This document shows, piece by piece, positions 11,267 through 63,969 of a DNA stretch of 64,000 nt. Made by a program: the position numbers and the translations under genes. Within the stretch, counting starts at the first letter, position 1, and every line of letters begins with the position of its first letter. Source of the DNA: a virus (Duplodnaviria; Heunggongvirae; Uroviricota; Caudoviricetes); the IMG/VR virus record IMGVR_UViG_3300014208_000001, positions 165,318 through 229,317 of that record. One strand, 5' to 3'. The notes below the pieces were generated by a model that saw nothing but the letters and a program-made list of their open reading frames with translations, ran no database searches and was not told the origin of the DNA.

Positions 11267-12316
11267 ATGGAACGTACTCTAATGAATCCATCATACATAA
11301 TTTATGGTGATTACAATCGTAATAACGGGTCAATGCTACTACGTAAAATACGTTCCTATGCCAGATTTGAAACAGACCCATATTATTTGGCTAAAGTAAA
11401 ACAAGCAGTAGCAGAACGAGTATATTTGGACGATGACTCAACTTTCGACGCGATAATAAAGTATCAAAATGGTGATATATCACAATTAGACCCATTGTTC
11501 AAAGCATATCATTTATTAATATTAAAATTATCAGCGGGCGCATTACGAATATACAAAAAACGAGGCCAAATAGACGAAATACTATCATTATCATATTCTA
11601 CATTCTTAACATGCTTAAAAAAATACACAGTATCTGAAAAATTAAGCAGATTTTCAACATATCTATCAACAGCAATATTACATAATATAATACATTATAT
11701 ACCATTTGAACACACCAGAATACGTTATAGAATACAACACATATCAGCTTTGGATAATATAATATTAAATGATTTATCTATAAATCCAAATCAATCTATA
11801 CACGATATATTACCAGATGATACTATTAAGAAATATTGGAAACATATTAATTATTTGACAATTGTAAACGTCTACAAACAAAATCACATACCAATTAAAG
11901 TGTCAGACCAACCATTAATGCATATTGATATTGATGAGTGCTTTAAAAATTTAAATGATAGACAAAAAAGAATATTAACACGCAGATTAAATGGAGATAT
12001 ATTGCATGATATAGGTATTGATGAAAATATCACCAGAGAAAGAGTGCGTCAAATAGAGGCACAAGCATTATCAAAAATCAAAAAAATTATCGAAAGCCAA
12101 AATAGATTACCAATTAAACCGATTAAATTACCTGAAAAACAACAAGTCATACTGTTAACATATGATGAAGCTAAAAAATTTATAAAATTACATTATATAA
12201 AATCTAGAGCCGCATATATACGCTTTGCAAGAATATGTGTACAATTACCTTTAAACCCACGTTCAACTTATAAGCATTCATGGAAAGGTTGGAAATCATT
12301 CTTATCTAGGAGGTAA
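11267..12316 (+). CDS. sigma-70 family RNA polymerase sigma factor with C-terminal extension
   Basis: Region 4.2 HTH LNDRQKRILTRRLNGDILHDIGIDENITRERVRQIEAQALSKIKK. Region 2-like YKKRGQIDEILSLSYSTFLTCLKKY. Confidence 0.6.
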   Translation: MERTLMNPSYIIYGDYNRNNGSMLLRKIRSYARFETDPYYLAKVKQAVAERVYLDDDSTFDAIIKYQNGDISQLDPLFKAYHLLILKLSAGALRIYKKRGQIDEILSLSYSTFLTCLKKYTVSEKLSRFSTYLSTAILHNIIHYIPFEHTRIRYRIQHISALDNIILNDLSINPNQSIHDILPDDTIKKYWKHINYLTIVNVYKQNHIPIKVSDQPLMHIDIDECFKNLNDRQKRILTRRLNGDILHDIGIDENITRERVRQIEAQALSKIKKIIESQNRLPIKPIKLPEKQQVILLTYDEAKKFIKLHYIKSRAAYIRFARICVQLPLNPRSTYKHSWKGWKSFLSRR

Positions 12317-14152
12317 ATCATATATAGTTATCTCTGAATCATCAGCATTTTCATAATTTGCTAATTCTTCTGATATAAGCGCTTTAGCGATATTTTTAGC
12401 GCCATTAGCTTCTTCAATATCAATAGTTGATTCAATCAGCACTAATGGGTCAGAATTAGTACCATAATTCGAATCATTAATATTATTACCCTTAGACAAT
12501 GCATCTAATTCATTTATAGTCATAAAATAATCGAATCCACTATTCAGTTCGCGTTCATTTAATTTCTCTAATATCTTCTTGCTACGTAATCTTTTATCTA
12601 TACGCATCTCATTGATTACACGTTTTTCACTTGCGTAATCATATCCTTCTAACGGTGGTTCAGTATCTTCTTCAGCATCAGGTGCTAATAAATCATTATC
12701 TTGCCCTGGAATTTCGGGTGTTTCATCATCCATACCAAGATCTAATCCTCCTAAACCGCCTCCACCGCCACTGGGTGCCATAGATTCGGCTTCAACATCT
12801 TTTAAATCTTCGATTTCATCCGGGGACAAGTCAGTGAAGTGTGTGACAATCCAATCTTTGGGGAACCATCCAAGATCTTTAAGAGTCGCCATGACATCAG
12901 CTCTTGTTTGCCATGTCTCAATTCGATATAATTCTTCGAGAGCTGATGTGGCTGTTAATGTGATTTCAAATCCTTTTAGATCTTCAACAGAATAACCACG
13001 TAGTGCTAAATGAACCAGCGCGACTTTAGTTAATCCTTTTGCCACTTCTCTCTGAATCCATTGTACTGCTTTTGCAAACTCAGCGTGGCTCTGTGATAAT
13101 GATTTTTCATTCTGTTCACCAGCGCCTTCTCCTAGTCCAACTCTGGCAAATGGAATCTTAAGAGGTGCTATCATTTTCTTTTTGAAATATTCGATATCCG
13201 CTATTTGATCTAAATTTTCGGCTCCTGGTAACGAATCAACATCAGGGCCAGTACCATCAGCTCTTACAGGTAAAAAATAATCATCTTCTTGAATAAGAGG
13301 TGAATATCGCTCGTCAAATGTACCGGTCGTTGGGTTATAGAATCTCTGTCTTTTCATAGTCCTTGCAATAGCTGCTATATATTCAGGTATTTGATTAGTT
13401 GGTATATTACCAACTGGTATTTTGAATTTCCTTCTCTCAGGTGCTCTAGTAATACGATATATCAATGCACTATCTTCCATTAATCGCAATTGTTTAAATG
13501 CTTTACGTCCACCATCTAATATACTAATACCATATGGGTGATATATATTTTCAAATGAGGTTAATCTAGTATGCATCACTTGCCATGGATGCATGAATAT
13601 TGGCTCTGGGTATATTGGATCTTGATAATAAAATCCAACCAAATCACCAAATCTTGTTTCAATTCTTGTAAAATTATAGATATTCATAAATCTTAAACTT
13701 GATACACATGTTCTGTTTTCATTTGGTATTATTTCAGCGCCAAAATCGCCATATTTACATAAATATCTAATTGTGGGTCTACAATGTGTGTCCCACTGTA
13801 GAGTGTTAAAAAATAATTCTTCTAATTCTCTTTTTAATCGTTTATTTCTTGCTCTTATTATTATTGTGTGCTTGCGTTCTGAATCAACTAAACTAGCTTC
13901 GTCAGCATATAAATCTAATGCTAAACTAATTTCACCTGTTTGTGCCATTAGTTCATAATCTCTATACCTTTCTAATCTATTTATTTGAACATTGGTTTGA
14001 TCTAGAATGGATTGTTGATCCAAATCTAAATTGCCAGTATGGGCAATTCGATCAAGTTGAGTTTGGTCTTGTAATGTTCTTTCTGATTGAAATATATTAT
14101 GATTTTTAATCAGAGTTCGAACACGATCAAACACAAACCAATTGCTGGGCAT
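12302..14152 (-). CDS. portal vertex protein, gp20-like
   Basis: LIYRITRAPERR...DSLPGAENLDQI aligns with T4 gp20 VIYRITRAPDRR...DTLPGADNTGNM. AGGAG RBS. Confidence 0.9.
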   Translation of the reverse strand: MPSNWFVFDRVRTLIKNHNIFQSERTLQDQTQLDRIAHTGNLDLDQQSILDQTNVQINRLERYRDYELMAQTGEISLALDLYADEASLVDSERKHTIIIRARNKRLKRELEELFFNTLQWDTHCRPTIRYLCKYGDFGAEIIPNENRTCVSSLRFMNIYNFTRIETRFGDLVGFYYQDPIYPEPIFMHPWQVMHTRLTSFENIYHPYGISILDGGRKAFKQLRLMEDSALIYRITRAPERRKFKIPVGNIPTNQIPEYIAAIARTMKRQRFYNPTTGTFDERYSPLIQEDDYFLPVRADGTGPDVDSLPGAENLDQIADIEYFKKKMIAPLKIPFARVGLGEGAGEQNEKSLSQSHAEFAKAVQWIQREVAKGLTKVALVHLALRGYSVEDLKGFEITLTATSALEELYRIETWQTRADVMATLKDLGWFPKDWIVTHFTDLSPDEIEDLKDVEAESMAPSGGGGGLGGLDLGMDDETPEIPGQDNDLLAPDAEEDTEPPLEGYDYASEKRVINEMRIDKRLRSKKILEKLNERELNSGFDYFMTINELDALSKGNNINDSNYGTNSDPLVLIESTIDIEEANGAKNIAKALISEELANYENADDSEITIYDLPPR

Positions 14153-14730: not shown

Positions 14731-15149
14731 TTAGAAGTCCATTCAGATTCTATTTTTTTATTAGACAATTGATTAAATTGATTAAATTCATCCTCACATA
14801 AATTAAATTCTATATGCCTTTTATCAATATATCTAACATTGGACATCACAACCATATCAACCATACAATAATATAATACATACGTGCCATTTAAATCTTT
14901 ACCAGACAATTCACAATATATTGATTGAGTCGGCTTAAAATTTTTTATCAATCTATTCTTTATTTCTTCTCCGCAATTTTCACAACAATCGATACTTTTA
15001 ATAATACGTTCTAATAATATTGATCTTATTTCTGGCTTATGATTTACAACATTTACTTTTCTAAAATCCATTGAATAATATGTAAATTGCGATTTAACCT
15101 CTATTTTACACAAGTCACATACTATTCCATCTTTTGATTTATTAAGCAT
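14727..15149 (-). CDS. Cys-rich hypothetical protein (CxxC ... CCxxC)
   Basis: A 140-aa ORF coupled to the terminase stop. Confidence 0.4.
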   Translation of the reverse strand: MLNKSKDGIVCDLCKIEVKSQFTYYSMDFRKVNVVNHKPEIRSILLERIIKSIDCCENCGEEIKNRLIKNFKPTQSIYCELSGKDLNGTYVLYYCMVDMVVMSNVRYIDKRHIEFNLCEDEFNQFNQLSNKKIESEWTSN

Positions 15150-18100
15150 TATTCACCTTTTCGTTTAAAATAATATTTTGGTGGTGTTACAATAGGACCA
15201 TTTTTAGACATTGGTATAGCACCTAACTGATAAGTAAATGCATCTAATTGACGCTGAATATTTTGTTCAGGCATTTCATCTGGCGTGCCAACAAATGGTA
15301 AAAATGGATTACCAGTCGCATTTACTAATTGTTTATGGTATTGAACCATTTGATCATCAGTAAAGATAGTAGGCCCAGCCAAACTAGTAAAATCAGAAGA
15401 TGATAACACCGGCCCAGCAGAAACCGATGAAAGTGCAAACGAATCATTAATAGCCACCAACGCTAACGCAAAAGCCATAACAAGATCGTCAAAATTATTA
15501 GCACCTTCTTCAGCTTCAGTCTTTCCAGTATCCCTACCAGATTTGTCTCTTTTTCTAACATACGTATTAAATTGCTTCAATAATCTCCTGCTATAAACTT
15601 TATACCCAGCATCATCTTCGTCTCTAACATAATCTATTAATAACCTGTTCAAAATCGGTTTAGATGCCATAGTAGTAAAGAAACCATATCTATCAATTTT
15701 CATAGCTCGCTGTGTACTACTCGATGGTCTAGGTTTATCATTGATGTCCTTTTTGCGCCATATATTAGGATAATTAAATTCATGTCGTAGAGCATCTATT
15801 AAATTATCACCACCATTATTGCGTTCTAATACTAACATAGCATTGTTATAATATCTTCCCAAATAATCAACAAATCGTAAAAATTGTTTTGGTAAGCATC
15901 TTACCATCATTTCAGCTACTTGTTCCATTGTTATTGCATCTAATATTTCTAATGCATGATAATCTTTACCTTTACCAGTTGCAAAGTCGACACCCATAAC
16001 ATATATATGAGGTGGTTCACCTGGTGATATTATTTGATTATTTCGCATTTTTGCTGGTTTTGCTTGTATCGGATGCTCCCACACCCACAAACCAGATTCA
16101 GATTCTTGCTCATTGAAACTTAATTCTTCTGATTCTCCTGTGCTTGGATTTGTGTATAATATTGTATTAGTGACTCTATCTGGTTCTTTCATAGTTGTAG
16201 CTAATTTAGTTAATACTGATCTAGTTATAACTGTATTACCAGAGCCAATAAATGATGCTAAAACTTCCTGGTTAAATTTCCATCCTTCACCTTTTTCTTG
16301 CAGACCGCGCCATTGTTCTTCTAACCATGGTGACCAATATGGACCATATTTATCTTCTTCTTCTTTAGTGGTACATTTTCTCAATCCGTCTCTTGGTGCT
16401 ATCCGTACTAATTCTCTACTTAAACTATCTCTATATTCAATATTCCAATCCATATCCCACCAATTAACACATATCGGATTAAATACATTATCGCCAGCTT
16501 CAGCTTCTGTCCACGTGCCCCAATACCAGTTGCCGACTCCATTCGTATTCGCGTGTACAGTGCAGTCACCGATAAAAGTGTGTGTGTTTGGTAATGTGAA
16601 ATCATATACTTCCGCTTCAGAATCTTCTAATGATTTAACCTCATTGAACCAATCATATTCTAATAATTTAATAAGAGAATCATAAGCGTCATTACCTTCA
16701 TATGAAATCTTACTCATAAACGAAGCGAGACGATCTTTAGTTATCCTTGATCTTGATCCATAAAGAACATTTGGGGCTAATCCCAATTTAGTCATTTTAG
16801 CGATTGAAAGATCAGTTGTGTCTTTTAATTGTTTTAAAAGATTCTTAACAACTGGTGGCATTAACTCAGACCAAACTGACGTCTTATTTTTTTGTAAAGC
16901 TTGTTTTCTACCCAAATCAAAACCAATAAGATCATAAAACAAATTTGTAAAATTGTTAGAAACATATAATCGATATGATTCACGAGTATCATGTGTAGTG
17001 GTCTCACCATTATTACGTTTAAATGACGTCATACCAGGCGGCGATATTTCTAAATATGTATGTATTCCATAATTAAATAATAACATCCTAACTTGTTTAA
17101 TAAGTTTTTTAGATGTAGAAGTATAACAAACTTGCCCTTTTCTCGTTAAAGCAGCACCATCACCATCAAACAATCCTCTAAGAAAATTCCTTATTATTGG
17201 TTCAGAACATTGTAATAATCTTTTTGGTATAGTTTTAAATGGTGCTATTGTACATTCAACACCAAGATATTTAAGAAATCTAACAAACATAGGTGATGAA
17301 CATACCGTAACATAATCTTGCCCTTTTCTTCCTCTATTCCAATTAATATTGCCCCAAGATTCGCATCGATCTAGAACTTTAGAATCACCACACGACAATA
17401 CCACTTCAGCAGTAATTTTACCATTTTTTCTAATTGTTTCTCTTACATGACCTTCAGCTATAATAACACCAAGCATATAAGCAATATCTTCATCCATCTT
17501 TTTTATTTGAAAAATTGGTGAGTTTAAATTATCATCTCTATAACTCTTATTACGATCTTCATAATTTAATATATCATTATTTCCGAAAACCATTTGCCCA
17601 GCTTTAACTGGCAGGAAGTCTCCGATCTGTAAATCTTGAATATATTTATTATTTATAGTCCCATTAGATGACACAACTGGCAATTTGTGTAATAATGATG
17701 CTTCGAATTCATAGCAACAAGATGTTTTAACAATTTTAGTTGCTTCTTTTGGTCTTTTATAAAATTTAGTAGCTGGTTCTAAACCATCAATCCCAACAAT
17801 ATCTGGCCCCTTATAATCAGTATGATAATAACCATCATCAAAGCCATCGTATTCATGAGGTGCTAAATCTTGTATTTCACATAAACCGTTTGCAGTATTA
17901 ATTAAAGTATCTGGTGCCACACATGTACTAATTACTATTGTACTACCACCGTGAGTCATGGTTGAATAACCGGCTGCCCACATCACATCCATATCTTGAA
18001 TAAATGCTGCTTCGTCTATTATATTCAATGATGATGCATTTGATCGTAAAACATCTGGGTGTGATGTCATAGATTTTATAACTGTACCATTAGTAAATGC

Positions 18101-19516
18101 TATTGCGTGTTCATTCCATCCTTTTCTGCCTGTGGTGCCTATACGTGGTGCCCATATATCTTGCATCCACTCTGGTAAGTTATTAAATAAGAACGCCACA
18201 TTCTCTTTCAGAAATCCTTTGGCGTCTTCATCTCTACGAGAAACGATTAATATTGTTTTATTTGGGTTGAACATCGCAAACCATAATGCGAATGCCCCAG
18301 ATACTTTCGATATACCACAGTTATGAACAACAGCCCCATCAACAATATAATTATTATATGGTGGAACATTTAAATCATAAACACATCCATCACCTTTAAC
18401 ACGTTTAATAGATTTAATATCACCTTTTTCTCTATTAAAAAAGAATCCCTTAGTTATTTGATTACGTGGCTTTTTACCATAAATACCAATATATTGTACA
18501 AATCTATTAAAATCATCTTTACCAATTATACGTAATTTTGGTATTGTTGTGGTCGTGCGTGGATAATATACAGCATTAATATTAAATCTAGTTAATAATT
18601 GCTTCAGCTGATGAAGCATTGTAACCGATTCTAATCCTATTCCAGCTTCATTACAATTGCCGCCAGAATACCATCCATCACCGGCAAACATCCTATTAAT
18701 TAATACTGCTATTGATTTATTGTCCCATTTAAACACATCGCTCGGTATTGTTTTATCAGCTTTTATCTTATTAAGTATATTATATCGATCTGCCCAACAC
18801 GTAGCAGCAACACATGTAGTTTGCAATCTATAATTCTTAGTCGATTCTGGTTTAAATCCACTCTCATGTTTTCGTATTGTTAATTGTAATCCGAATCTAT
18901 TTTTAAAACATTTTTGATATTCTAATAAATATTTCCAACATGAATTATTAAATGTGACAAATCTGCCAGTTGATCCATCAGTCAATAAGTATCCTAATAA
19001 TATTGGATCATTATGATTAGGAGTATATCCATATCTTTCAATATCATTGATTTCTATTAACTTCTTATTGCCTATCAAATCACCAGCTTTTATATATCCA
19101 TTATTTGTTAAATACTCATGGTCATATGTGGCTATTGATCTATGTCCAGATTTGGATCGCACTTCTACAAGATTATCAGAAATACCATTATTATAAACAT
19201 CATTTACTGGTACTGCTTCTATGGCGTTGGTATGATAATTTAATGTATAAACCAAATCACCTTTATTAATCTGATCTATGCGTTTTGGACCATTTGGTCC
19301 CCAAACCATTTGGTCACCAGCAAAACACTGTCTACATTTTTTAAATATATTAAATCTATGCTGTTTAAATGCATTCAACGCCATTTTCTGATAGCTGAAT
19401 AATTTAAACGGTAATATACCAGCAGACGGATGCTTTACTTTACCAAAATTCTCTAAAAACCACGATATCGATTGTCTAGATCGTAAAATAACTTGTTTTT
19501 GAGTATCATTCATCAA
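15149..19516 (-). CDS. terminase large subunit, gp17-like, interrupted by two inteins
   Basis: The extein sequence FKKCRQ/CGISKVSGAF...IIDEAAF...IVIST/TNGVGNWYW parallels T4 gp17 SRQLGKTT...IYIDECAF...IIITTTPNGLNHFYDIW. The nuclease half HALEILD matches gp17 HALHIID. Confidence 0.9.
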   Translation of the reverse strand: MMNDTQKQVILRSRQSISWFLENFGKVKHPSAGILPFKLFSYQKMALNAFKQHRFNIFKKCRQCFAGDQMVWGPNGPKRIDQINKGDLVYTLNYHTNAIEAVPVNDVYNNGISDNLVEVRSKSGHRSIATYDHEYLTNNGYIKAGDLIGNKKLIEINDIERYGYTPNHNDPILLGYLLTDGSTGRFVTFNNSCWKYLLEYQKCFKNRFGLQLTIRKHESGFKPESTKNYRLQTTCVAATCWADRYNILNKIKADKTIPSDVFKWDNKSIAVLINRMFAGDGWYSGGNCNEAGIGLESVTMLHQLKQLLTRFNINAVYYPRTTTTIPKLRIIGKDDFNRFVQYIGIYGKKPRNQITKGFFFNREKGDIKSIKRVKGDGCVYDLNVPPYNNYIVDGAVVHNCGISKVSGAFALWFAMFNPNKTILIVSRRDEDAKGFLKENVAFLFNNLPEWMQDIWAPRIGTTGRKGWNEHAIAFTNGTVIKSMTSHPDVLRSNASSLNIIDEAAFIQDMDVMWAAGYSTMTHGGSTIVISTCVAPDTLINTANGLCEIQDLAPHEYDGFDDGYYHTDYKGPDIVGIDGLEPATKFYKRPKEATKIVKTSCCYEFEASLLHKLPVVSSNGTINNKYIQDLQIGDFLPVKAGQMVFGNNDILNYEDRNKSYRDDNLNSPIFQIKKMDEDIAYMLGVIIAEGHVRETIRKNGKITAEVVLSCGDSKVLDRCESWGNINWNRGRKGQDYVTVCSSPMFVRFLKYLGVECTIAPFKTIPKRLLQCSEPIIRNFLRGLFDGDGAALTRKGQVCYTSTSKKLIKQVRMLLFNYGIHTYLEISPPGMTSFKRNNGETTTHDTRESYRLYVSNNFTNLFYDLIGFDLGRKQALQKNKTSVWSELMPPVVKNLLKQLKDTTDLSIAKMTKLGLAPNVLYGSRSRITKDRLASFMSKISYEGNDAYDSLIKLLEYDWFNEVKSLEDSEAEVYDFTLPNTHTFIGDCTVHANTNGVGNWYWGTWTEAEAGDNVFNPICVNWWDMDWNIEYRDSLSRELVRIAPRDGLRKCTTKEEEDKYGPYWSPWLEEQWRGLQEKGEGWKFNQEVLASFIGSGNTVITRSVLTKLATTMKEPDRVTNTILYTNPSTGESEELSFNEQESESGLWVWEHPIQAKPAKMRNNQIISPGEPPHIYVMGVDFATGKGKDYHALEILDAITMEQVAEMMVRCLPKQFLRFVDYLGRYYNNAMLVLERNNGGDNLIDALRHEFNYPNIWRKKDINDKPRPSSSTQRAMKIDRYGFFTTMASKPILNRLLIDYVRDEDDAGYKVYSRRLLKQFNTYVRKRDKSGRDTGKTEAEEGANNFDDLVMAFALALVAINDSFALSSVSAGPVLSSSDFTSLAGPTIFTDDQMVQYHKQLVNATGNPFLPFVGTPDEMPEQNIQRQLDAFTYQLGAIPMSKNGPIVTPPKYYFKRKGE
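16547..17923 (-). mobile_element. intein 2 (459 aa, LAGLIDADG) in terminase before the T(P)NG motif
   Basis: Starts CVAPDTLI and ends TVHAN, followed by Thr. Has MLGVIIAEGHV and LRGLFDGDGAA motifs. Confidence 0.75.
18320..19327 (-). mobile_element. intein 1 (336 aa, LAGLIDADG homing endonuclease) in terminase Walker A P-loop
   Basis: Starts CFAGDQMVWG and ends VVHN, followed by Cys. Has LLGYLLTDGS and FAGDGWYS dodecapeptides. Codon boundaries were verified on the DNA. Confidence 0.8.
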
Positions 19517-35514: not shown

Positions 35515-35898
35515 TTACAAGCCGTTAAATGGCGACGTATGATCATTAGCTAATTTATATTCCGCTAATTTATATGCCGCAAATTGATCTAATGCTTTAT
35601 AACATGTTACAATTGCCGAGTTCACAACATTTTCAATAACGTCATTGTCTATTAATTGGATTGTATATTCTATAATTTTTGAATATGTATATGTGCCCAT
35701 TGGCGAACTATACATAATTATGATATCTGCTCCTGATATTTCTATTTGTACCATGAATAAGTGATGTGTATATAATAATATATGCATATCAGAACCTAAT
35801 ACTTCAACTATATCGAATCTATAGTGTGATTTTTTGTCTAATTCTTCTTTTATTATTTTAATTATATTGTTATGCAAGCTCACATTTGTCGCCGTCAC
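35515..35898 (-). CDS. hypothetical protein
   Basis: A 127-aa ORF overlapping the RNR 3' end by 29 nt. Confidence 0.35.
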   Translation of the reverse strand: MTATNVSLHNNIIKIIKEELDKKSHYRFDIVEVLGSDMHILLYTHHLFMVQIEISGADIIIMYSSPMGTYTYSKIIEYTIQLIDNDVIENVVNSAIVTCYKALDQFAAYKLAEYKLANDHTSPFNGL

Positions 35899-38800
35899 AG
35901 AATTTGCTGCCTATAGCTTCATTTATAAAAGATGAAAAATCTAATTGTTTGATTTTGCTATTATATTCGATGACTTCTTCTCTTGTACATGGTTCATATG
36001 GCGCTTGCTGATAACCGTGATCGGTGTGAGGAAGAAAACTTATCCCTTTTAATTTGTCTTCGAATACTTCACAAACTTCAGCTAATGTGTGGGCTTCTTC
36101 TTTTTTAAATTTTATTGTGCAACTAACTTGATTGTCTGCCCAATATGCTTGATAATCAGATGCTAACGCCATTTGACTGTACATCGAAACTTCTTCGACT
36201 GGTTTAACACGTTCATCGGAAATCGCGAATTTAGCGACCATTGTGTTTGGGTCACCAATCATTGGTTCGATATGATATCCTGCATCTTTCAAAATATCGA
36301 CTAAAATTGAATCTTTTGATAATCTCATGCGACGCCAATAATTTTTAGCTTCCGGGTAGTGAATACCAGGTGTTGCGCCAGCAACTAGACTGACCGATCC
36401 ACTTGGTTTGACCGATGTCACTTTTATAGATCCGTTCACGCATAGCCATTCACTATAAATGTTATCCCAATGTTTAATTTCTTTATAACCATTATCACAG
36501 AAATCGCGTAATAATTTTCGACGGCCAAATTTTGCTATAGCTTGAACGATTCCACTTTGTGATAAGCCTATTCTTCTATTTCTTAACATAACTTGGTTTG
36601 TGCGAGGGTTATGTGTTGGTAATAATGTAACTGTTTTGCCATATAAGTATGCATATTTAAGAGTACGCATATAATCTTCAGATGATTCATGATTGGCTGG
36701 GAAAGTTTCTACTAATGTGCATAATTCATGGTCTTCTAACGTTTGTTCGCTACATTGGCCTATTTGATATCCATTAATTACTATTTGGTTATTAATCGGC
36801 TCTGTTAAACAAAACGTATCTTGTTTGCCAATATATTCAATCGATTTCACTTTAACATACTTACCTGTGTCTGAATTATTTGATCCACAATGCTTTGATA
36901 GCCATTCTCTAGCATTTATTGATTTCCAATCTTGAATAAAACCAATTTGATCTAAAAATGCTGTTACTTGTTTCATACCAGAAATTATTAATTCCCAATT
37001 TGCCTTACGATTATATAGTTTTCGACCACCATTCCCATCATTCATAAGTTGCTTGCCAGCAGACTTTCTAAATTGCACAGTGCTAGCGATATTAAATTGG
37101 TTCAATAATAATCTGCAGTCAGACAGCAAATCACGATTAGATTGATTGATTCTAACCGAAATCGTGCCGTTATCAGATATTAAAACGCACCCATCGGCGG
37201 ACGCTAACCCTTTGATAAATGCACTAATAGTTTCCCTATCGCCATTCCATATACTAGATGGAATAGCATGCTTATTTCCGTTAACAATCCCATCGTTTTT
37301 CAACATTCTACCAAGAACATTAGATCCAACTCTGACTTCATCATGATCAAAATGTTCTTGATCTCTATGCCACCCGGCATATGCCGGCGACTGCACAGAT
37401 GATTTATTATGAATATAATATAATTCAGTTAACAATGCAGTGATACGTGGTAAAACATTTTCGACATCAGATTCATAACATGTACATTCGGCTCTGACTT
37501 GCCCATCTGATTTTGGCGATAGAGAGCCATCACCAATGCACCACCCTGCTAATTCAGCATACACAGTATTACGATATGTGCCAAAATGAACTGTCTGATT
37601 CAATGGTACCATATCACCAACTGAGAGTTCATTTAAATGAACTCTATTTTCATTGTATCTCACTCTTTTCTTACCATTTATTCTAATAGATTTCTTATTT
37701 AATTTTATAAAATTATGATTGGCTGTGGCATCAACATATGAATTATCATCAAATATCACACGCCACAAATCGATATTTTGGCCTGTTCTGTATACTTTGG
37801 TCGCTTCAACAACGCCGTTTCTGTTTACAACATTTTGACTTCCATATTTTAATATTGGATTATCAGTTAATCCATTATATTCTTGCATACCTGATTGAAG
37901 CCATAAGTCAATTAATTGGATATATCCATTAGCAGTTAATAGCTTGTTTGATCCGGCTAAACACGGATTACTTCCGACAGCCCTACCATCAACGCCAGGA
38001 TTAAATCCATCTATCATTCTACCATAATCTCGCATATTATCTAACCATATAAAACCTGGCTCACCATTTACAGCTATGCTAGCTGCATATTTAGTATAAT
38101 CCATTCCAACATGAGCAACTATCGAATTATTCGACGCCCATCTATGCGCATTTAAATAATTCCATGTTTTAACACAATAATCTAATTTATCGCCTTTAAT
38201 ACACGTATCTTCAAAATCACCATACACAGCAACATATCTATCAATATCATATAATTTAGTCGTTACTTTATAAAAGTCAGCAACTTCATCTTTTGTAAAC
38301 CCTGCAACTGGGTTTTTCATATTTATATAGTCATTGTCGTCATATTCTCCGAATGTGATTTGTGCGGTTCTACGCACGTTGCCAGCGACAACACATTTGC
38401 CAATAATATTCATTAAATCAGTTATATCAACACTCGTCAAATACCGATCAATTCGCGATTCAAGTAATTGTCTTATAGAATTATGCAACGATATTAATAT
38501 TTGCGCACCACTAGCTTTACCGCCAAATCCTTTAATATCTGACCCAGCCGGCCTAATATGATCATATTCAAATTCCATATATCCTAAATTAGGATATTTT
38601 GTATATGATTCAATAAGCAATCGTAACGATTCTACCCATGATTCACGCGAATCACCAATTACAAATGTATTTGCGGTATCATCATATGGAGAGCGTACTA
38701 ATAATTTATTCGCCCCTTTGGTATCGAATCCGACACCAACGCCGAGCATTGACATATCCATCATAAAGCAGAATGGTTCTGCTGGTTCAGTATCTATATT

Positions 38801-39256
38801 ATTAGTGGATATCATAGCGCAATTATTTAATGCTGCGCTTCCTCTACTCCACATAAATTCTGTACCCATCATCCATAGACCACGTCCTGGGGGCAAGAAT
38901 TTGAAATCCCACATTCTCTGAAACATTTCCATCGCTGATGGAACTGCTTTGTCATAACTCCATGGGATATGTAATTTTTTGCAGTGCCTTCTTTGTATCT
39001 CGTATGTGCCTTCTGTCACACGCCTTAATGTGTCTTCGAAGTTTTCTTTTGAATTGTCGGCTTTTAATCGTGAATATGTTCTGTAATAAACTATTTCACC
39101 TAATCCGTTGAATCCGAAATTAGGCTTTCTTCCTCTATATTGATTTATAAAATCTTCTGGTAATTGAAAATAATCATCTTCGACTGATGAGTAAGAACTG
39201 AAATAATTTTCTGATATTTTTTGATTCACTATTGAGGACATTAAACATTTCTCCAA
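35870..39256 (-). CDS. nrdA: ribonucleotide reductase large (alpha) subunit with one intein
   Basis: The extein is 725 aa. The intein splits the active-site motif, and the spliced product reads GSNP-CSEQ (compare SNLCSEI / NPCGE). The C-terminal tail has CDGDKC. Confidence 0.8.
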   Translation of the reverse strand: MEKCLMSSIVNQKISENYFSSYSSVEDDYFQLPEDFINQYRGRKPNFGFNGLGEIVYYRTYSRLKADNSKENFEDTLRRVTEGTYEIQRRHCKKLHIPWSYDKAVPSAMEMFQRMWDFKFLPPGRGLWMMGTEFMWSRGSAALNNCAMISTNNIDTEPAEPFCFMMDMSMLGVGVGFDTKGANKLLVRSPYDDTANTFVIGDSRESWVESLRLLIESYTKYPNLGYMEFEYDHIRPAGSDIKGFGGKASGAQILISLHNSIRQLLESRIDRYLTSVDITDLMNIIGKCVVAGNVRRTAQITFGEYDDNDYINMKNPVAGFTKDEVADFYKVTTKLYDIDRYVAVYGDFEDTCIKGDKLDYCVKTWNYLNAHRWASNNSIVAHVGMDYTKYAASIAVNGEPGFIWLDNMRDYGRMIDGFNPGVDGRAVGSNPCLAGSNKLLTANGYIQLIDLWLQSGMQEYNGLTDNPILKYGSQNVVNRNGVVEATKVYRTGQNIDLWRVIFDDNSYVDATANHNFIKLNKKSIRINGKKRVRYNENRVHLNELSVGDMVPLNQTVHFGTYRNTVYAELAGWCIGDGSLSPKSDGQVRAECTCYESDVENVLPRITALLTELYYIHNKSSVQSPAYAGWHRDQEHFDHDEVRVGSNVLGRMLKNDGIVNGNKHAIPSSIWNGDRETISAFIKGLASADGCVLISDNGTISVRINQSNRDLLSDCRLLLNQFNIASTVQFRKSAGKQLMNDGNGGRKLYNRKANWELIISGMKQVTAFLDQIGFIQDWKSINAREWLSKHCGSNNSDTGKYVKVKSIEYIGKQDTFCLTEPINNQIVINGYQIGQCSEQTLEDHELCTLVETFPANHESSEDYMRTLKYAYLYGKTVTLLPTHNPRTNQVMLRNRRIGLSQSGIVQAIAKFGRRKLLRDFCDNGYKEIKHWDNIYSEWLCVNGSIKVTSVKPSGSVSLVAGATPGIHYPEAKNYWRRMRLSKDSILVDILKDAGYHIEPMIGDPNTMVAKFAISDERVKPVEEVSMYSQMALASDYQAYWADNQVSCTIKFKKEEAHTLAEVCEVFEDKLKGISFLPHTDHGYQQAPYEPCTREEVIEYNSKIKQLDFSSFINEAIGSKFCDGDKCELA
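36755..37963 (-). mobile_element. RNR intein (403 aa, LAGLIDADG) inserted at the catalytic Cys; non-canonical C-terminus ...NGYQIGQ/C
   Basis: Starts CLAGSNKLLTANGY. Has LAGWCIGDGS and IKGLASADGCV motifs. Ends Gly-Gln rather than His-Asn, with Cys at +1. Boundaries were verified codon by codon. Confidence 0.75.
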
Positions 39257-39918
39257 TCATTAGCTAAAATTTCAGTGATGTTTCTGACAAAATTAGGATC
39301 ACGAGCTATTAACTTTGATCTCTCAACAAACAAATCAATCATAGATGGCAATAAGTGAGCATCATTTATCTTATTATCATTTAAGTATAATACAACTCTG
39401 GCGCAGCTATACGATAATGACATGTACTGTATTGATAATTTTTTGGATAAGTACAGGTTTGTGATTGCATATGATCTATTGTGCTTCTCTTTTATTAATA
39501 ATGCGGCTACGATGTCTTTTTTAAGCACACCACCGTTAGTTTTTTCAAGCAATACTGATCGAGATGAATTAATTATATTGATCAATCGCTCTGATGTCGA
39601 ATTTTCTTTTATTAATTCTTTATAAACATACTCTATTGTTGATTTCTTATTTAATGCTGATAGTCCTTTACACAATAATTTCATATTTTTAATATGTTTT
39701 ACAGCAATATGAATAAATCTATCTATCGAATAATCATCAAGACCATATTTTTCAAAATTGTTATGTAATGATAATAAATGACGCCAATGATATGTTTTAT
39801 GTGGGTCTGTATTGGCTGGAAATTTGAGCTTGTACCCATATTGTAAATACACTCTGAAGCATTTGTCCCATAATTGCATAACACGTTCATCAACCGTATT
39901 ATCAATATTCGACACCAT
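39241..39918 (-). CDS. hypothetical protein
   Basis: A 225-aa ORF, overlapping the RNR start by 16 nt. Confidence 0.4.
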   Translation of the reverse strand: MVSNIDNTVDERVMQLWDKCFRVYLQYGYKLKFPANTDPHKTYHWRHLLSLHNNFEKYGLDDYSIDRFIHIAVKHIKNMKLLCKGLSALNKKSTIEYVYKELIKENSTSERLINIINSSRSVLLEKTNGGVLKKDIVAALLIKEKHNRSYAITNLYLSKKLSIQYMSLSYSCARVVLYLNDNKINDAHLLPSMIDLFVERSKLIARDPNFVRNITEILANDWRNV

Positions 39919-40421: not shown

Positions 40422-40777
40422 AATGTATCTTTAATTCCATTGGTGTCCAAACGAGTTATATCATTTTCATCGTATGTTTCATCAGAAATATAAATTTCAT
40501 ATAATATACTATCAGAAACCGCTATAAATTTATGATAAACAGTTGGATTAACTACTATAGGTTTCCATAAAGTTAAATCATATTCAACTACATGATTACT
40601 ATCTATAATCGGCAATACATTAAGTTTTACTGCACCTTTGACAAGTATAAATTTATTATATGATTTACTATGCATATGAGTAGATGAATATCCACCTTTT
40701 TTCAATTTCATATGAAATAACGCATATCCATCTGTATCGTACAATTTTAATGATGTTCCCCATGGTTTTACAATCAT
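40418..40777 (-). CDS. cupin-fold protein (ManC C-terminal cupin-like)
   Basis: VKPWGTSLKLYDTDGYALFHMKLKKGGYSSTHMHSKSYNKFILVKGAVKL resembles ERPWGSYEVL...[33 protein letters not shown]. Confidence 0.45.
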   Translation of the reverse strand: MIVKPWGTSLKLYDTDGYALFHMKLKKGGYSSTHMHSKSYNKFILVKGAVKLNVLPIIDSNHVVEYDLTLWKPIVVNPTVYHKFIAVSDSILYEIYISDETYDENDITRLDTNGIKDTL

Positions 40778-42369
40778 CGTGTAACCTTTTCATAATAGTA
40801 ATTAATCGTGCTTGATCCTTCAACAATTATTTCATTAACAGCTATTTGATACTGAACAGATACTGTGTCAGAATCAATAATTAATCCATTAGCTAAAACA
40901 TTGTCAGTTGGATTAAACAAATCAACATATTTAACACCAGACACATTTTCAATTACTTTTATAAAATTAGAAATATAAAATGGTTGGCCCATATCCCATT
41001 TGCTAATATCGAAAAAATTTTGAATGGCGGCTTCAACATTGCTTTTAACGATATTAGCGTCAGAATTAATACTAACAACAATATTAGCATTAATATCAAT
41101 TGGCTTCATAAATCCATCGTATATTACTACATCGTCTGTGGCGACATTTATACTATCTATATATGTTTTTAATCCATATTTCAAACCAGCGCTTGGCGCA
41201 ACTGGCCTATCATCATTCCCGACTGCCAATGCATATATTTCTATTCTATTGGCATTTAAACTAGTTCTAACAGCAGCTACAGCTTTACTAACGGTACCAA
41301 ACACTGGATGCGAATAGCTGATACTAGCTTGTGCATAATCTGATTCAGTCGTAATACTATTATGTATCGAAAAGTCTCTCGGCGCTCTTTTCTTAGCTTG
41401 CTCTATAGTTTCACGATCTGTGCCACCCATTGATGGCGTAATGTTACGAAATCTAACTGAGACGCTCGCGTTAGCTGGCGGCAATGGAGTTATCGGTAAC
41501 GATGAATCGATCTGTCCAACGCCAATTCTGCCTCTAATACCTCCACCAACACGATACATAATTTCAATAGTTTGTCCAGATAATGGTGCAACACCATTAA
41601 TATCATCACCAAATTTAAACACAGCACTAGTATCATAAAAAACGACTTCGACAACTTTATCAGTCGATGAATATCGTTCTATAGGATCATAAATCACTTT
41701 CCATGAATCCCTTGACGATCCTGAAATAATAGTAACATATATTGGCTGTTCTAATATATTAGTATCAGTGATGATATATTGCTGATTAGCACCCCCAGAA
41801 CTAACGAATGATACAGGTTCAACTGTTGATCCTTCTATACCATATGCAATTACACCTCTTTTATTAGCAGGAATAACGATTTTATTAGTAAAATCTAATG
41901 GTGATTTATATACTTCATATGTTATCGATGATCCATCTGGTCCATTTAATGAAAATTTCAAACCAGAATCGATTTGAATATCAGTTACTGTAGGCTGATT
42001 GATAGATATTTCAACATCAACAGTAGCTGGCGTTTGGCGTTTAAATCTTTGATTTATTAATGCCAAATGATTTACTACAGCAGCTTCTGATCTAGCTGTA
42101 CTAATAAACGCATCATCGGCTATCATATCAGCTCTTAAAGATAGCCTAGCTGTTACTGATGCTATCAATTCAGCCAGCATCATAACACCATTGCTGGCTA
42201 CGAAATCATTAAAAATATCAGGAAAATAAGTCTTAACATATTCAACAAAAGATCTAAGCGCTGTATCATAATCTAAAGCACTAAAATCAAACTTTCTTGA
42301 AGTTTGATCTGTTAATTGTACACTAAATCCTTGAGGATCAGCTGGCGTTTGAAAATATACGTCAGTCAT
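40774..42369 (-). CDS. baseplate wedge protein, gp6/Baseplate-J-like
   Basis: A 531-aa ORF immediately upstream of the gp25-like gene. Call rests on position and size only. Confidence 0.4.
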   Translation of the reverse strand: MTDVYFQTPADPQGFSVQLTDQTSRKFDFSALDYDTALRSFVEYVKTYFPDIFNDFVASNGVMMLAELIASVTARLSLRADMIADDAFISTARSEAAVVNHLALINQRFKRQTPATVDVEISINQPTVTDIQIDSGLKFSLNGPDGSSITYEVYKSPLDFTNKIVIPANKRGVIAYGIEGSTVEPVSFVSSGGANQQYIITDTNILEQPIYVTIISGSSRDSWKVIYDPIERYSSTDKVVEVVFYDTSAVFKFGDDINGVAPLSGQTIEIMYRVGGGIRGRIGVGQIDSSLPITPLPPANASVSVRFRNITPSMGGTDRETIEQAKKRAPRDFSIHNSITTESDYAQASISYSHPVFGTVSKAVAAVRTSLNANRIEIYALAVGNDDRPVAPSAGLKYGLKTYIDSINVATDDVVIYDGFMKPIDINANIVVSINSDANIVKSNVEAAIQNFFDISKWDMGQPFYISNFIKVIENVSGVKYVDLFNPTDNVLANGLIIDSDTVSVQYQIAVNEIIVEGSSTINYYYEKVTR

Positions 42370-43481: not shown

Positions 43482-45572
43482 TTATACAGATGTACTTGTG
43501 CTGGTGCTTGTACTAGTATTATATGGATGCCTAACTTCATCTAATGGACATTCTTCAAATGGTCCGTTTGTGGTTTTGCCACGATCATCAGGAGACAATT
43601 GGTCTGGAACCAATATCTCATCAAGAACATTTAATGGTTCAACTTGGCCATCGGCACCAGGTATTAATGCAGCATAAATACTATCACAATGAACATCATT
43701 ACTAAACGTTGCGTCTGTTCCTCGTAAAGACATTGTACATGTACCACCTTTAAATTTAATCGATTCGTCAGCATTTAATGTTATAGAACCACCGGATTTA
43801 AAATTAATATCGCCATTAGAAATAATATCTATCTTAGTGCCAGAGTAAATCTTAACATCCCCATTATTATTATATAGTGTGATATTACGATTTATTTCAT
43901 CTATCCATACATATGCTTCTGTGTCATCGCTTGCTCTCATAATAGCTAATTTATATCTATCTGATAGCCAGACACCACGATTATTCTTACCAACCATTTC
44001 TACCCATGGGCCATCACCATCTCTAGCTTCGATGCCTTGATTATTATTATCAGCTGTTTTCAATCTTACGTATTGGTTTATATCGTCTAATTTCAAATGA
44101 TATGATGTGCTTTCTGCATCTCCAAACATTAACGGTTTTCTGATAAATTCATTATCTTTTGTTCCTTGCCATTCTGGTGCCCATTCAGTGCCCATTGATG
44201 CCGACAGCATAAGATAGCCATATCTGTCATTTAATTCTATCGATCTGCCATTAGGTGTACCCCATGATGTATGATTAGCTTCGTCATTTTCATTAAATTC
44301 CCAATAAAATCCTTGTGATACTGTTGATCTTACAGCAGCTCGCCGTCCTTTTATCAGTATACCATTGCCATGCGGCGTTTGTTCAGTACCAGCATCAATA
44401 GCACTAGAACCCCTATCATCTAACACTATTTTAAATCCATGCCTAGATACTGTCCGTATTTGTCTAGCGTCTCTGTCTTTCCATATTTCTACTTCATTTT
44501 CTACTTTATCAGATATTTCATCAATTAATTTTCTACTAATTGCTGTATCTCTACCTGGGTCTGATCCAACATCTATCATTTGCCATAACATACCACCTTT
44601 AGATCTTATTTTAATCCATCGCATATCACGTTCTGATTTTGATAAATATTTTAATCCCTCTCCATATTCATCACGAGATTTAGAATCAAATGGTAATTTT
44701 TGAGCCCATCCAGTATCTCTCATTTCAAATAAGTGACCATATCTAGTTAACATGGCGATTCTGCGTGAATCGCCTTCTGGTGTATTTTCATTTAATAACT
44801 TCTGATAATATTTCCATCTATCAGTTTCAAATTTTTCATCGTTATCAAAATCACCCTCAAATTCACCATATTCGCTATCAGATTTCCAATAATAGCCTTG
44901 ATCACTTTGTATAAAAATCATTCCATATTTCGATACACGTGCCATATATTTTTTATCTGGCTTGTTTATTTCTGGTTTATTACCTTTCGATTCGAATGAT
45001 TTACCCGATATTGCATCATGGCCTGGTGGCGGTGGTGTAATATCGTGCTCTCTAGGATAAAAACCAACTGACGACACTATATCAAGGTTACCATAACGAT
45101 CATTGGTTCCGGTGCTCATTGGGCGACGATCAGATGGCAAATAAGTTATATCATAATCATCTGGTTTTTTATCTGGCTTACCATCTTGATTCACAGATAC
45201 TGGAGATTCTGTATATAATGATGGATATGAATACATTCTACGTCTAGTCGCATTAGCAAAGCCAGTGCAAATCGGTGAATATGGGTGTCCCTTTTCAAAT
45301 TCTATTACTATTAAGTCACCTATGCATGGGTGAGTCCAGAATCCGGCTCTCTTACCACCTAAATGAAATGCTACAGTTGCCCATGGCGCTTCTTCTACTT
45401 TGATATCCCAATCATGTAATTCTGGGCATTTAAATTTTATACGATGCATATTTAATGGATCATTAGTTTCAACAACTTCAGCAATATATTGTCCACTAAA
45501 TCTATCATTTAGCGGTGTCTTTCTGGCCGCTAATACTTTATTTAAGTAAAGATCAGTGATATCAGACATCAT
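43482..45572 (-). CDS. baseplate central spike/hub protein, gp5/VgrG-like OB-fold N-terminus
   Basis: HPCIGDLIVIEFEKGHPYSPICTGF resembles the gp5/VgrG motif vGdeVlVaFe.GDpdrPiviG. The C-terminus is (TS)n. Confidence 0.5.
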   Translation of the reverse strand: MMSDITDLYLNKVLAARKTPLNDRFSGQYIAEVVETNDPLNMHRIKFKCPELHDWDIKVEEAPWATVAFHLGGKRAGFWTHPCIGDLIVIEFEKGHPYSPICTGFANATRRRMYSYPSLYTESPVSVNQDGKPDKKPDDYDITYLPSDRRPMSTGTNDRYGNLDIVSSVGFYPREHDITPPPPGHDAISGKSFESKGNKPEINKPDKKYMARVSKYGMIFIQSDQGYYWKSDSEYGEFEGDFDNDEKFETDRWKYYQKLLNENTPEGDSRRIAMLTRYGHLFEMRDTGWAQKLPFDSKSRDEYGEGLKYLSKSERDMRWIKIRSKGGMLWQMIDVGSDPGRDTAISRKLIDEISDKVENEVEIWKDRDARQIRTVSRHGFKIVLDDRGSSAIDAGTEQTPHGNGILIKGRRAAVRSTVSQGFYWEFNENDEANHTSWGTPNGRSIELNDRYGYLMLSASMGTEWAPEWQGTKDNEFIRKPLMFGDAESTSYHLKLDDINQYVRLKTADNNNQGIEARDGDGPWVEMVGKNNRGVWLSDRYKLAIMRASDDTEAYVWIDEINRNITLYNNNGDVKIYSGTKIDIISNGDINFKSGGSITLNADESIKFKGGTCTMSLRGTDATFSNDVHCDSIYAALIPGADGQVEPLNVLDEILVPDQLSPDDRGKTTNGPFEECPLDEVRHPYNTSTSTSTSTSV

Positions 45573-61875: not shown

Positions 61876-63969
61876 CTATAGACTGCCATTCACCACAACA
61901 CCACCAGCCACTAAAACTTCATTAGCTGAGAATGATGCACTATCGCGGAGTCCGACCAAATTCAGAATTATGAATTCGGCGGCGGTTGTCGGTTGGACTA
62001 ACACAGTCACCCACAACTCTTTTCTTGCTTGTCTTTCTGGTGTATTATTCGACTCATCACAGATTAATTTGTACGCTGTAATGCCTCGTCTATTTTGAAC
62101 ATCAGACAAGTATGGGTCAAGAGTTGCAACTACTTGTCTCCACAGCACTTTATCATTTGGTTCCATGATAAAGTTTCTGAGAGATCTTTGCATGGTCTTC
62201 TTGAGGCCAGAAAACAACATCCGAACGTTGGCCCTATCGAACACCGATTCGCTTCTTAATAGTGTTCTCTGACCAAAAACAACTATTCCATCTTGTGGGA
62301 ATTTGGTAATAGCATTAACAGCATTACCAGACCCATAAAGAAGATCACGCTCGCCTTGAGATGGTGCGTATTCAACATCTCTAGCTGTTAAGAGACGACC
62401 ACGTCTAATACCAGCAGGAGCGTACCATTGTTCTGCAACTCTAGAGGTTCTAGAGTACACAGCAGTAACGTGCCCAGATGGTGGTATCCACAATTCTTGC
62501 TGCGAAAACTGGTCATAAATTTTAACCCATGACCAATATAACGCACCATAGCTGCTATTAATAGCAGCATTTAAATCAGACAGTAGAATCCCATTATGCC
62601 AATCAACAACTTGCTGTGGTCGCAAACCAAATGGCGGATCAACAATGTAAAGCACATCACCACGCGATTCACACATTTGAAGTGCTGTGCCGATCACTTG
62701 ACCACTTGAAAATCCTGGGATTGCAAGTAAATTAATATCAATCGTTTCTGGATTTTGGAAAGCATAAATGCCTGTGCTCAATGCTGGATTACCAATCACA
62801 GCGGCATCTAAATTGCTCGAGAATGCAGCGTTGGTTGGAATACCATTCGCAGAACCGGCAAATTCACGATTGGCGAATTGTGACGGCTGCCGTGGCACAT
62901 ATGATGCCAATGTTGGATCATTATCCAAAAATGCTGGGCGATCTTCCCAATTCACAAATGTGTTACCATTACGACCACCATAGGTAGTCCCAGGGTTTAA
63001 CACATCAGAGATAAATCTCGTTGAATTCTGATCGAATGACACATCATTGATCGATTCAACGACTGCGCCATTAGAATCTCTAATGGTGACGGTATATCTG
63101 CCAGCAACTTCACCAACACCAGTTGTGAATAATGATAGCGAAAGAGTATTGCTATCAATCCATGTGCCAGCAGTTGGTGCAACAAACCACCCAACAATAT
63201 TGTCATAATAGCTTGAGTCAACAGCACAATCGGCACCAGCGGGATCTGTTTCACAGCTAAGTGGTGTTGATGCGCTAGATGTACCAGCATCTGGAAGCGA
63301 TGTTCTAATATCATTAAAACCACGGTAAGCTGATTGGTATGGGCTTAAAATATCAAGCTCTTCAGCGAACCGTAACGTTTTGATATTAGAGTAATTCGCT
63401 AATAATTGTAAAGTATCGGTTTTGTGAGTTGTCGTTGTCAGTATTACCACATGTTCTTTACCAGTCGGTAATGTTATTGACAACGATTCAAAATAACTTT
63501 CAGTACCAACTGTCCCTGCAGCATCTATAACTGACGCTGTCGAAACAGTGCTTAAACTACTAGCAACCGGCATACTGAATTGAACATTAGCCGTTTCAGT
63601 ACCAATTATATTGATTGAGACTCTGTTATTCTGTGATGTGAAAACATATGGCCCATAATGAGTTGCTAATAAATATGCTCTTGGAATATCCCATTCATAG
63701 AGTTGAATTCCAAGCTCTAAAGCCCATGCTTCAGAACCGGTCATTTGTATCCATTCACCAGCGGTTCTGGTTCTTATTTGAGGAACAACTGTTCCATCTG
63801 TTAAAGTAGTCGTAGTTGCTAAGTAATCATCACCGCTGACTAACGCATTCACCGCAGCTATAAATGTCGCAGCGGTGGTGTACGTCGCCGCAGTCATTGT
63901 GTATTCAGTTGGTGTATCATTTTCAACAGCGAATTTGAATACTCTGTTATCTGGATGAACATCAAACAC
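61876..63969 (-). CDS. tail sheath protein, gp18-like
   Basis: The C-terminal domain DINLLAIPGF...YGALYWSWVKIYD...WIPPSGHVTAVYSRTSRVAEQWYAPAGIRRG is the conserved sheath signature (LLavPG ... ALYyPWv ... vPPSg..aG..ArtD...GvwkAPAG). Confidence 0.85.
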   Translation of the reverse strand: MFDVHPDNRVFKFAVENDTPTEYTMTAATYTTAATFIAAVNALVSGDDYLATTTTLTDGTVVPQIRTRTAGEWIQMTGSEAWALELGIQLYEWDIPRAYLLATHYGPYVFTSQNNRVSINIIGTETANVQFSMPVASSLSTVSTASVIDAAGTVGTESYFESLSITLPTGKEHVVILTTTTHKTDTLQLLANYSNIKTLRFAEELDILSPYQSAYRGFNDIRTSLPDAGTSSASTPLSCETDPAGADCAVDSSYYDNIVGWFVAPTAGTWIDSNTLSLSLFTTGVGEVAGRYTVTIRDSNGAVVESINDVSFDQNSTRFISDVLNPGTTYGGRNGNTFVNWEDRPAFLDNDPTLASYVPRQPSQFANREFAGSANGIPTNAAFSSNLDAAVIGNPALSTGIYAFQNPETIDINLLAIPGFSSGQVIGTALQMCESRGDVLYIVDPPFGLRPQQVVDWHNGILLSDLNAAINSSYGALYWSWVKIYDQFSQQELWIPPSGHVTAVYSRTSRVAEQWYAPAGIRRGRLLTARDVEYAPSQGERDLLYGSGNAVNAITKFPQDGIVVFGQRTLLRSESVFDRANVRMLFSGLKKTMQRSLRNFIMEPNDKVLWRQVVATLDPYLSDVQNRRGITAYKLICDESNNTPERQARKELWVTVLVQPTTAAEFIILNLVGLRDSASFSANEVLVAGGVVVNGSL

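Follow-up and report, generated by a model that had tools for sequence, protein, structure and literature searches.

In canonical inteins, the terminal Asn cyclises into a succinimide at the third step of splicing. Inteins ending in Gln splice via the standard pathway with Gln cyclisation, and the one residing in the ribonucleotide reductase (RNR) of Chilo iridescent virus (CIV) does so better with Gln than with Asn (PMC4031507). The product of this cyclisation is an aminoglutarimide, the formation of which is normally assisted by the penultimate and block F His residues (PMC8175363). Functional inteins without the penultimate His (position G:6) exist, and Cys is the second commonest residue of inteins at position F:4 (PMC4031507). 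Class 3 inteins are set apart by the lack of an N-terminal nucleophile together with a Trp(B:12)/Cys(F:4)/Thr(G:5) triplet, or WCT triplet (PMC2807308). As for RNRs, the most frequent site of contiguous inteins in classes I and II lies directly N-terminal to the thiyl-radical Cys (PMC2677866), and one allele group of RNR inteins (RIR1-l, that of CIV) is common to bacteria, phages and iridescent viruses (PMC1635734).

The window, i.e. the whole stretch of 64,000 nucleotides that was analysed here, is that of a myovirus, as told by its structural genes (Table 1). Besides the intein treated below, it contains two further inteins, both in a single ORF of 1455 aa. This ORF was read as a putative large terminase subunit on account of its sequence motifs and of its place beside the portal gene, and no family match supporting a terminase identity was found for it.

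The intein treated here is very probably a functional and mobile element of class 1, provided with a LAGLIDADG endonuclease and inserted directly before the thiyl-radical Cys of a phage RTPR-type RNR, from which it would excise itself by protein splicing. The original prediction had announced a 403-aa LAGLIDADG intein in an RNR, followed by the radical-bearing Cys and ending in Gly-Gln instead of His-Asn. All of this was borne out by the ORF, by domain and fold matches and by alignment of the host enzyme, and the coordinates that had been given were exact; the strand, which is the minus one, was absent from them.

Table 1. Features of the RNR precursor gene, of its intein and of the structural genes used to classify the window
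Feature	Position in window	Strand	Residues and evidence
RNR precursor gene	35870..39256	(-)	1128-aa ORF, predicted RTPR-type class II RNR with one intein; ORF listing
N-extein, aa 1-431, C-terminal end ...GRAVGSNP	37964..39256	(-)	Asn-Pro aligned with Asn406-Pro407 of 1L1L
Intein, 403 aa, CLAGSNKLL...VINGYQIGQ	36755..37963	(-)	precursor residues 432-834; Pfam, relatives, fold, empty alleles
Cys1, N-terminal splice nucleophile (block A)	37961..37963	(-)	present in 53/53 full-length relatives
Block B T80-A-N-H83 (Thr B:7, His B:10)	37715..37726	(-)	Thr and His in 53/53; B:12 is Phe85, not Trp
LAGLIDADG homing-endonuclease domain	36884..37591	(-)	about intein residues 125-360, approximate limits; PF14528, alpha/beta repeats of the model
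LAGLIDADG motif 1, LAGWCIGDG (Asp145)	37526..37552	(-)	intein residues 138-146; Asp kept in 49/53
LAGLIDADG motif 2, KGLASADG (Asp257)	37190..37213	(-)	intein residues 251-258; Asp kept in 52/53
Blocks F and G, TFC385LTEPINN392QIVINGYQIG402Q403	36755..36817	(-)	Cys F:4, Gly G:6, Gln G:7
Cys+1, first C-extein residue	36752..36754	(-)	predicted splice nucleophile and RNR thiyl-radical Cys; aligned with 1L1L Cys408
C-extein (CSEQTLEDHELC...KFCDGDKCELA) and stop codon	35870..36754	(-)	Glu410 and Cys419 equivalents (1L1L alignment)
T4-like portal	12302-14152		
Baseplate J protein	40774-42369		
Baseplate spike OB domain	43482-45572		
Tail sheath	61876-63969		

From the alignment of its catalytic residues with those of the Lactobacillus leichmannii enzyme (1L1L), the host protein is predicted to be a class II RNR of the RTPR type, that is monomeric and adenosylcobalamin-dependent. 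The precursor matched Pfam families PF17975 and PF21995. When the 403 residues of the intein were removed in silico, the score against TIGR02505 (RTPR) rose from 308 to 331 bits, with a single match spanning the splice junction; as the curated equivalog cutoff is 340 bits, membership of the spliced protein in this equivalog would be borderline. The spliced protein aligned without interruption with the L. leichmannii RTPR (E=1e-88), GSNPCSEQTLEDHELC of the former falling on GTNPCGEISLANGEPC of the latter. In this alignment Cys+1 coincided with Cys408 (chain count of 1L1L), and Asn406, Glu410, Cys419 and Cys119 were matched as well. Since Cys408 is established as the carrier of the thiyl radical in that enzyme, Cys+1 should be the radical-bearing residue of the phage protein. 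A C-terminal CxxxxC pair (CDGDKC) could also be read in the C-extein. The precursor itself would be unable to reduce nucleotides, because the intein keeps the Asn-Pro of the active-site loop 403 residues away from its Cys-x-Glu.

The insertion is in frame between GSNP and CSEQ (flanks ...AVGSNP and CSEQTLE...), and the codons of its downstream junction, GGC CAA TGT, specify Gly402, Gln403 and Cys+1. Base composition fails to mark it off, the GC content being 34.7% in the insert versus 36.1% in the flanking coding sequence. Other limits were considered and discarded. Boundaries moved by one residue (LAGS...GQC/S) would give the same mature protein, but the intein would then start with Leu and end with Cys; these residues are not chemically competent there, and such limits conflict with the invariant Cys1 and Cys+1. 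Likewise, no canonical His-Asn terminus is to be found nearby, the last 20 residues of the intein containing no His. An intron-like insertion, which the original prediction had named as one of two refuting outcomes, was not retained either: an Rfam scan of positions 35500-39600 returned nothing at E<=1 save one snoRNA-like match (23 bits) put down to chance, and an open reading frame runs through the whole insertion, whose fold is that of an intein.

Comparison with profile models, one of the checks proposed together with the original prediction, gave a match to Pfam LAGLIDADG_3 (PF14528, E=4e-15) and scores below the cutoffs of the standard intein models (21 bits against a cutoff of 35.8 for Intein_splicing, and 16.6 bits against 24.5 for TIGR01445). 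These sub-threshold scores are due to the Gly-Gln ending, and pipelines consequently label such genes as LAGLIDADG proteins only, which is why the metagenomic relatives bear that label alone. A phmmer search of the PDB sequences with the intein gave zero matches, and kinship with solved inteins was apparent through fold comparison. AlphaFold2, given an alignment of 22 members of the family (A1), produced a model with a pLDDT of 90.5 and a pTM of 0.90. The best solved match of this model in Foldseek was the TliVMA intein (7QSU, E=1.3e-19), followed by PI-PfuI (1DQ3, 2e-16), which is itself an RNR intein, then by PI-SceI and PI-TkoII; the free LAGLIDADG enzyme I-DmoI was matched at about 1e-8. 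The endonuclease domain displayed the traits of double-motif LAGLIDADG enzymes, namely two motifs with their acidic residues and a pseudo-dimeric alpha/beta fold like that of I-DmoI and PI-PfuI. Pfam, the 1328 relatives described below and the fold, all far above chance, established the insert as an intein bearing a predicted LAGLIDADG homing endonuclease.

Concerning splicing residues, the following hallmarks of class 1 were observed: a HINT fold (in the model), nucleophiles at positions 1 and +1, a block B Thr-x-x-His, a cyclisable terminus, and insertion without frame disruption into a conserved site of the host protein, for which relatives possess intein-less alleles. Gln403 is, like Asp, an accepted variant of the usual terminal Asn (PMC4031507). 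Cys1, Thr80, His83 and Cys+1 were invariant among the 53 full-length family members, and the +1 residue was Cys in 140 of the 142 relatives with a readable junction. Asn392 stands at the usual position of the block F His (T-H-S-F in canonical relatives). This missing His and the Cys of the same block (Cys385) had been passed over in the original prediction. Because G:6 is Gly, the block F position is Asn392 and F:4 is occupied by Cys385, help for the cyclisation would have to come from elsewhere in the scaffold.

The family was delineated by an exhaustive HMMER search with the intein among 1.84 billion representatives, which returned 1328 relatives at E<=1e-3, including 33 at E<=1e-30 (best 1.8e-170). 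Of the 150 best-scoring representatives among these 1328 relatives, 142 had a C-terminal junction that could be read. The terminal residue of these 142 best relatives was Gln in 76 cases and Asn in 66, and the commonest penultimate residue was Gly (81), followed by His (22), Ser (16) and Ala (12). Gly-Gln is the most typical ending of the intein family at the RNR thiyl-Cys site, since it occurred in 52 of the 142 relatives, ahead of GN (29) and HN (21); two distant relatives ended in Arg-Arg. The GQ/C junction was kept, together with CLTEP, in relatives of only 63-67% identity. The original prediction had called terminal Gln rare, a statement that does not hold for this lineage; inteins of the same type also occupy this site in cultured phages. 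Its analogy with the CIV RNR intein and its appeal to Gln cyclisation are, for their part, in line with the review literature (PMC4031507).

The family also appeared to switch readily between the two terminal residues. Gln (CAR) and Asn (AAY) codons are separated by two nucleotide changes, passing via His or Lys. Despite this requirement, Gln and Asn swapped repeatedly: at least 16 changes were counted on a neighbour-joining tree of 53 sequences, versus 16.7 on average when the labels were shuffled, and 18 of the 53 nearest neighbours differed in their Gln/Asn terminus, as exemplified by two relatives of 66% identity of which one ends in GQ (P0003) and the other in GN (P0004). Judging from these sequences, the terminal state carries almost no phylogenetic signal. 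Position F:4 was Cys in 82 and Asp in 56 of the 142 best relatives, and His at G:6 was encountered only in company of Asp at F:4 (22/56, versus 0/82 with Cys; Fisher p=1e-10). Since F:4 changed only about 4 times on the 53-sequence tree, this association may reflect a few clades and not repeated co-evolution.

When IMG/VR was scanned with the C-extein, 17 loci were recovered, and at most of them the RNR was uninterrupted. Three intein-less loci (L008, L009 and L011), whose C-exteins were 71-72% identical to that of the window, read ...VMGGNP/CLEQSLES..., and these and others displayed ...NP/C.EQ without insertion; in L008 and L011 the sequence of the site is ...GGCGGAAACCCA/TGCTTAGAGCAATCC.... 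Locus L010 also consisted of an ORF of 1128 aa and harboured a 400-aa intein (CFAGEM...VVEGYQVGQ/CLEQ), identity with the window reaching 63% for the intein and 65% for the extein. The extein of L010 was 77% identical to those of the intein-less L008 and L011, and L008 and L010 both originated from metagenome 3300010883. The same site was occupied in L020 by a different, shorter intein with a His-Asn end. Because close viral relatives include empty GGNP/CLEQ alleles as well as a GQ/C intein allele, the boundaries of the intein are fixed and its mobility is indicated. Presence or absence at one exact site, along with intact endonuclease motifs, is what would be expected of a homing intein. In the two closest metagenomic matches (L001 and L002) the gene seemed to be split inside the intein into two overlapping RNR genes; scaffold runs of N shift the frame there, and the split was dismissed as an assembly artefact. 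A pattern scan of IMG/VR with the intein as the query yielded no confirmed relative, a word-indexed protein search matched only two fragments, and no near-identical DNA was found in GenBank phages; the closest relatives of the intein (60-67% identity) are known from metagenomes only.

We propose that splicing would begin with an N-S shift at Cys1, aided by Thr80 and His83, which would create the N-terminal thioester. The N-extein would then be passed to Cys+1 by trans-thioesterification, after which cyclisation of Gln403 to an aminoglutarimide would free the intein. A final S-to-N shift would rebuild the GSNP-CSEQ loop, only then able to host the thiyl radical. The endonuclease, in which both catalytic Asp are kept, presumably cuts intein-less alleles, leading to the spread of the element. 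Counting against this splicing reading are the scores of the intein HMMs, which lie below their cutoffs, the absence of both assisting His, and the RTPR score of 331 versus 340 bits.

A non-canonical terminus, the loss of both assisting His and the sub-threshold scores of the intein HMMs could be traits of a decayed, non-splicing insertion that lost its His-Asn by degeneration and left the phage RNR gene dead, and the Arg-Arg ends of the two distant relatives, which are unable to cyclise, go in the same direction. Such a decay is nevertheless extremely unlikely, as the ORF runs intact over 1128 codons, no essential residue varies within the family and GQ is kept at 63-67% identity. Intein and extein have, moreover, diverged equally (63% versus 65%), and the terminus in question prevails in a family that exceeds 1000 proteins (142 junctions read); the structural model of the intein is also confident. 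A class 3-like or hybrid mechanism, which we consider very improbable, is suggested by the Cys at F:4, found here and in 82 of the 142 relatives; this residue is the obligate nucleophile of class 3 inteins, where it lies near both junctions, and Cys1 or Ser1 does occur in a small number of inteins bearing the WCT triplet (PMC2807308). Yet Cys1 is invariant here (53/53), B:12 is Phe85 and not Trp, and G:5 is Ile401 and not Thr, so that Cys385 is the sole match to the class 3 definition; in the absence of the WCT triplet, membership of class 3 itself was rejected. In addition, the +1 residue is Cys, whereas it is usually Ser or Thr in class 3 (PMC2807308), and Cys at F:4 is also common in ordinary inteins (PMC4031507).

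Another reading would add a property to the functional class 1 intein without replacing it. A disulfide involving Cys1, Cys385 and Cys+1 might delay splicing, and RNR maturation with it, until the cell is reducing, and the slow Gln step would limit off-pathway cleavage. The three Cys should come together in the active site, the Gln-terminal PolII inteins do form a Cys1-Cys+1 disulfide that has to be reduced before splicing (PMC8175363), and His at G:6 never accompanied Cys at F:4 in the family. We regard this redox gating as unlikely, since the latter association may stem from few clades and since Cys+1 is imposed by the host site in any case. Likewise unlikely is the proposal that the inteins of the RNR thiyl-Cys site constitute a sub-type of class 1 with a mechanism of its own, in which Cys385 would replace the general acid/base or form a reversible disulfide. 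Members of this sub-type would be recognised by a Cys at F:4, by a residue other than His at G:6, in many cases by the absence of the block F His as well, and by termini that change freely between Gln and Asn. Were it to exist with a disulfide from Cys385 to either Cys1 or Cys+1, the redox state of the infected cell would control when the phage RNR matures.

As a very probable functional class 1 intein, the element matters mainly for the annotation of the window: the 1128-aa ORF becomes an RNR precursor, from which a predicted mature RTPR-type enzyme of 725 aa and a free homing endonuclease would be released. A terminal Gln preceded by a small residue, far from being an oddity, is the family norm at the most popular RNR site. 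The family thus provides biochemists with a large natural series for examining what stands in for the two missing His during cyclisation, and the association of Cys at F:4 with a non-His G:6, as well as the frequent Gln/Asn switching, are points for specialists.

Finally, the window intein can be set beside known systems. A tblastn search of GenBank phages with the intein retrieved homologues at the same RNR position, with identities of 21-26%. GN ends were displayed by the annotated putative intein of SPbeta bnrdE (FSNL/CVTGET...NGIVTGN/CSEV), by the annotated intein of NrdA in the T5-like phage SelmaRatti (...NGILAGN/CVEI), by the RNR intein of Proteus phage PL1 (...AGN/C) and by that of Thermus phage G20c (...FQSGN/CAEI), the insert of which was already described as a probable intein (PMC6459318) and the host protein of which is of the RTPR type, as is predicted for the window enzyme. 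The NrdA intein of Staphylococcus phage RP15 (...NGILTGQ/CSEI), in turn, shares the GQ end of the window intein. All these cultured-phage inteins resemble the latter by their insertion at N[LP]/C.E, their Cys1 and Cys+1, their LAGLIDADG domain and their penultimate Gly, and F:4 was Cys in all of them, SPbeta excepted. They differ in that most reside in class I NrdA or NrdE, whereas the window intein resides in a predicted RTPR.

The CIV intein, compared here from reviews only, likewise has another host, a class I RNR of a eukaryotic virus; among the 216 matches of a protein search seeded with the RP15 intein, those listed being at most 617 aa long, none was named iridovirus. The PolII inteins of Pyrococcus abyssi, P. 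horikoshii and Methanoculleus marisnigri share with the window intein class 1 affiliation, a C-terminal Gln, Cys1 and Cys+1, and their Gln is cyclised to aminoglutarimide (PMC4031507, PMC8175363). Yet these mini-inteins reside in another host protein, both the penultimate and the block F His are still present in them, their F:4 residue is Ser, and they splice faster after replacement of Gln by Asn (PMC8175363). As to architecture, PI-PfuI of Pyrococcus furiosus RNR (1DQ3), TliVMA (7QSU) and PI-SceI combine HINT and LAGLIDADG domains in the same way as the window model (Foldseek E-values of 1e-19 to 1e-13, TM-scores of 0.5-0.7), at identities of 12-16%. In the light of these comparisons, the window intein is a real and ordinary element, which adds one metagenome-type member to a well-known family at the best known of the RNR insertion sites.

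The lineage of the RNR intein appears from its sequences to have colonised a second host gene, and to have done so with its Gly-Gln ending. Among its best 150 relatives in the HMMER search of the representative protein library, 142 had readable C-terminal junctions and eight of these (P0034, P0052, P0062, P0074, P0090, P0098, P0101 and P0135) occurred in a host protein other than RNR, with the junction ...NGI(I/V)TGQ↓CRC (arrows mark splice junctions). The N-terminal junction in this other host, as read in P0034, was HPR↓CFTEDQ...

The last intein residue was labile within the family. On the tree of 53 full-length relatives, at least 16 switches between Gln and Asn were counted, which is about the number obtained with randomly shuffled labels. 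Codons for Gln (CAR) and Asn (AAY) are two nucleotides apart and the intermediates, His or Lys, are non-functional; one way in which such switching may have arisen is recombination among alleles of the intein. Two relatives displayed an apparent Arg-Arg before Cys+1, namely P0088 (...NNISTRR↓CGELPL) and P0126 (...EGFTARR↓CAEIPL). A terminal Arg is unable to cyclise, and these two may be degenerate inteins or have a shifted junction.

A second intein-bearing ORF of the window, of 1455 aa (see table), is read as a putative large terminase subunit on the basis of its motifs and of its position adjoining the portal gene. Its intein in the Walker A region (CRQ↓CFAGDQ...AVVHN↓CGISK) displayed a canonical His-Asn ending, and the other one (VIST↓CVAPDT...DCTVHAN↓TNGV) ended in Ala-Asn with Thr as +1 residue. 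Together with the RNR intein, the window therefore contains three inteins.

Coordinates of the ORFs and related loci
Feature	Coordinates	Strand	Remarks
Putative terminase ORF, 1455 aa, two inteins	15149-19516	(-)	two LAGLIDADG_3 and two Intein_splicing matches
Flavoprotein domain (PF02441, CoaC-like) fused to Peptidase_M23 domain, 345 aa	33738-34775	(-)	
DFP/CoaB-like ORF	34772-35473	(-)	directly downstream of RNR gene, just upstream of flavoprotein/Peptidase_M23 ORF
L001, metagenomic relative	4409-7830		
L002, metagenomic relative	3-2953		
L020, IMG/VR relative	2164-4891		

The fusion of flavoprotein and Peptidase_M23 domains in one ORF is unusual, and this phage window carries coenzyme A pathway genes (the CoaC-like and DFP/CoaB-like ORFs).

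In L001 and L002, the two closest metagenomic relatives, the annotation shows a pair of overlapping genes in place of one, with the break falling within the intein. This split was rejected as an assembly artefact, because runs of N at this place alter the frame in both scaffolds. Long intein-containing RNRs seem to have been missed by the word-indexed protein search, where all listed matches were of at most 617 aa; full-length relatives of 800-2100 aa are present in the representative library.

At the RNR site of the window intein, L020 carried a different intein, about 236 aa long, with a canonical end (...FSANGMIVHN↓CCEQ), so that this one site is contested by unrelated inteins. Several inteins per gene were found in the close RTPR relatives P0004, P0006, P0007, P0009 and P0010, the last of which (2131 aa) displayed four insertions, among them one after LNNC (Cys119 region, L. 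leichmannii RTPR numbering) and others after ESYELC (Cys419 region). In contrast to these five relatives, the RNR gene of the window contains the thiyl-Cys intein only.
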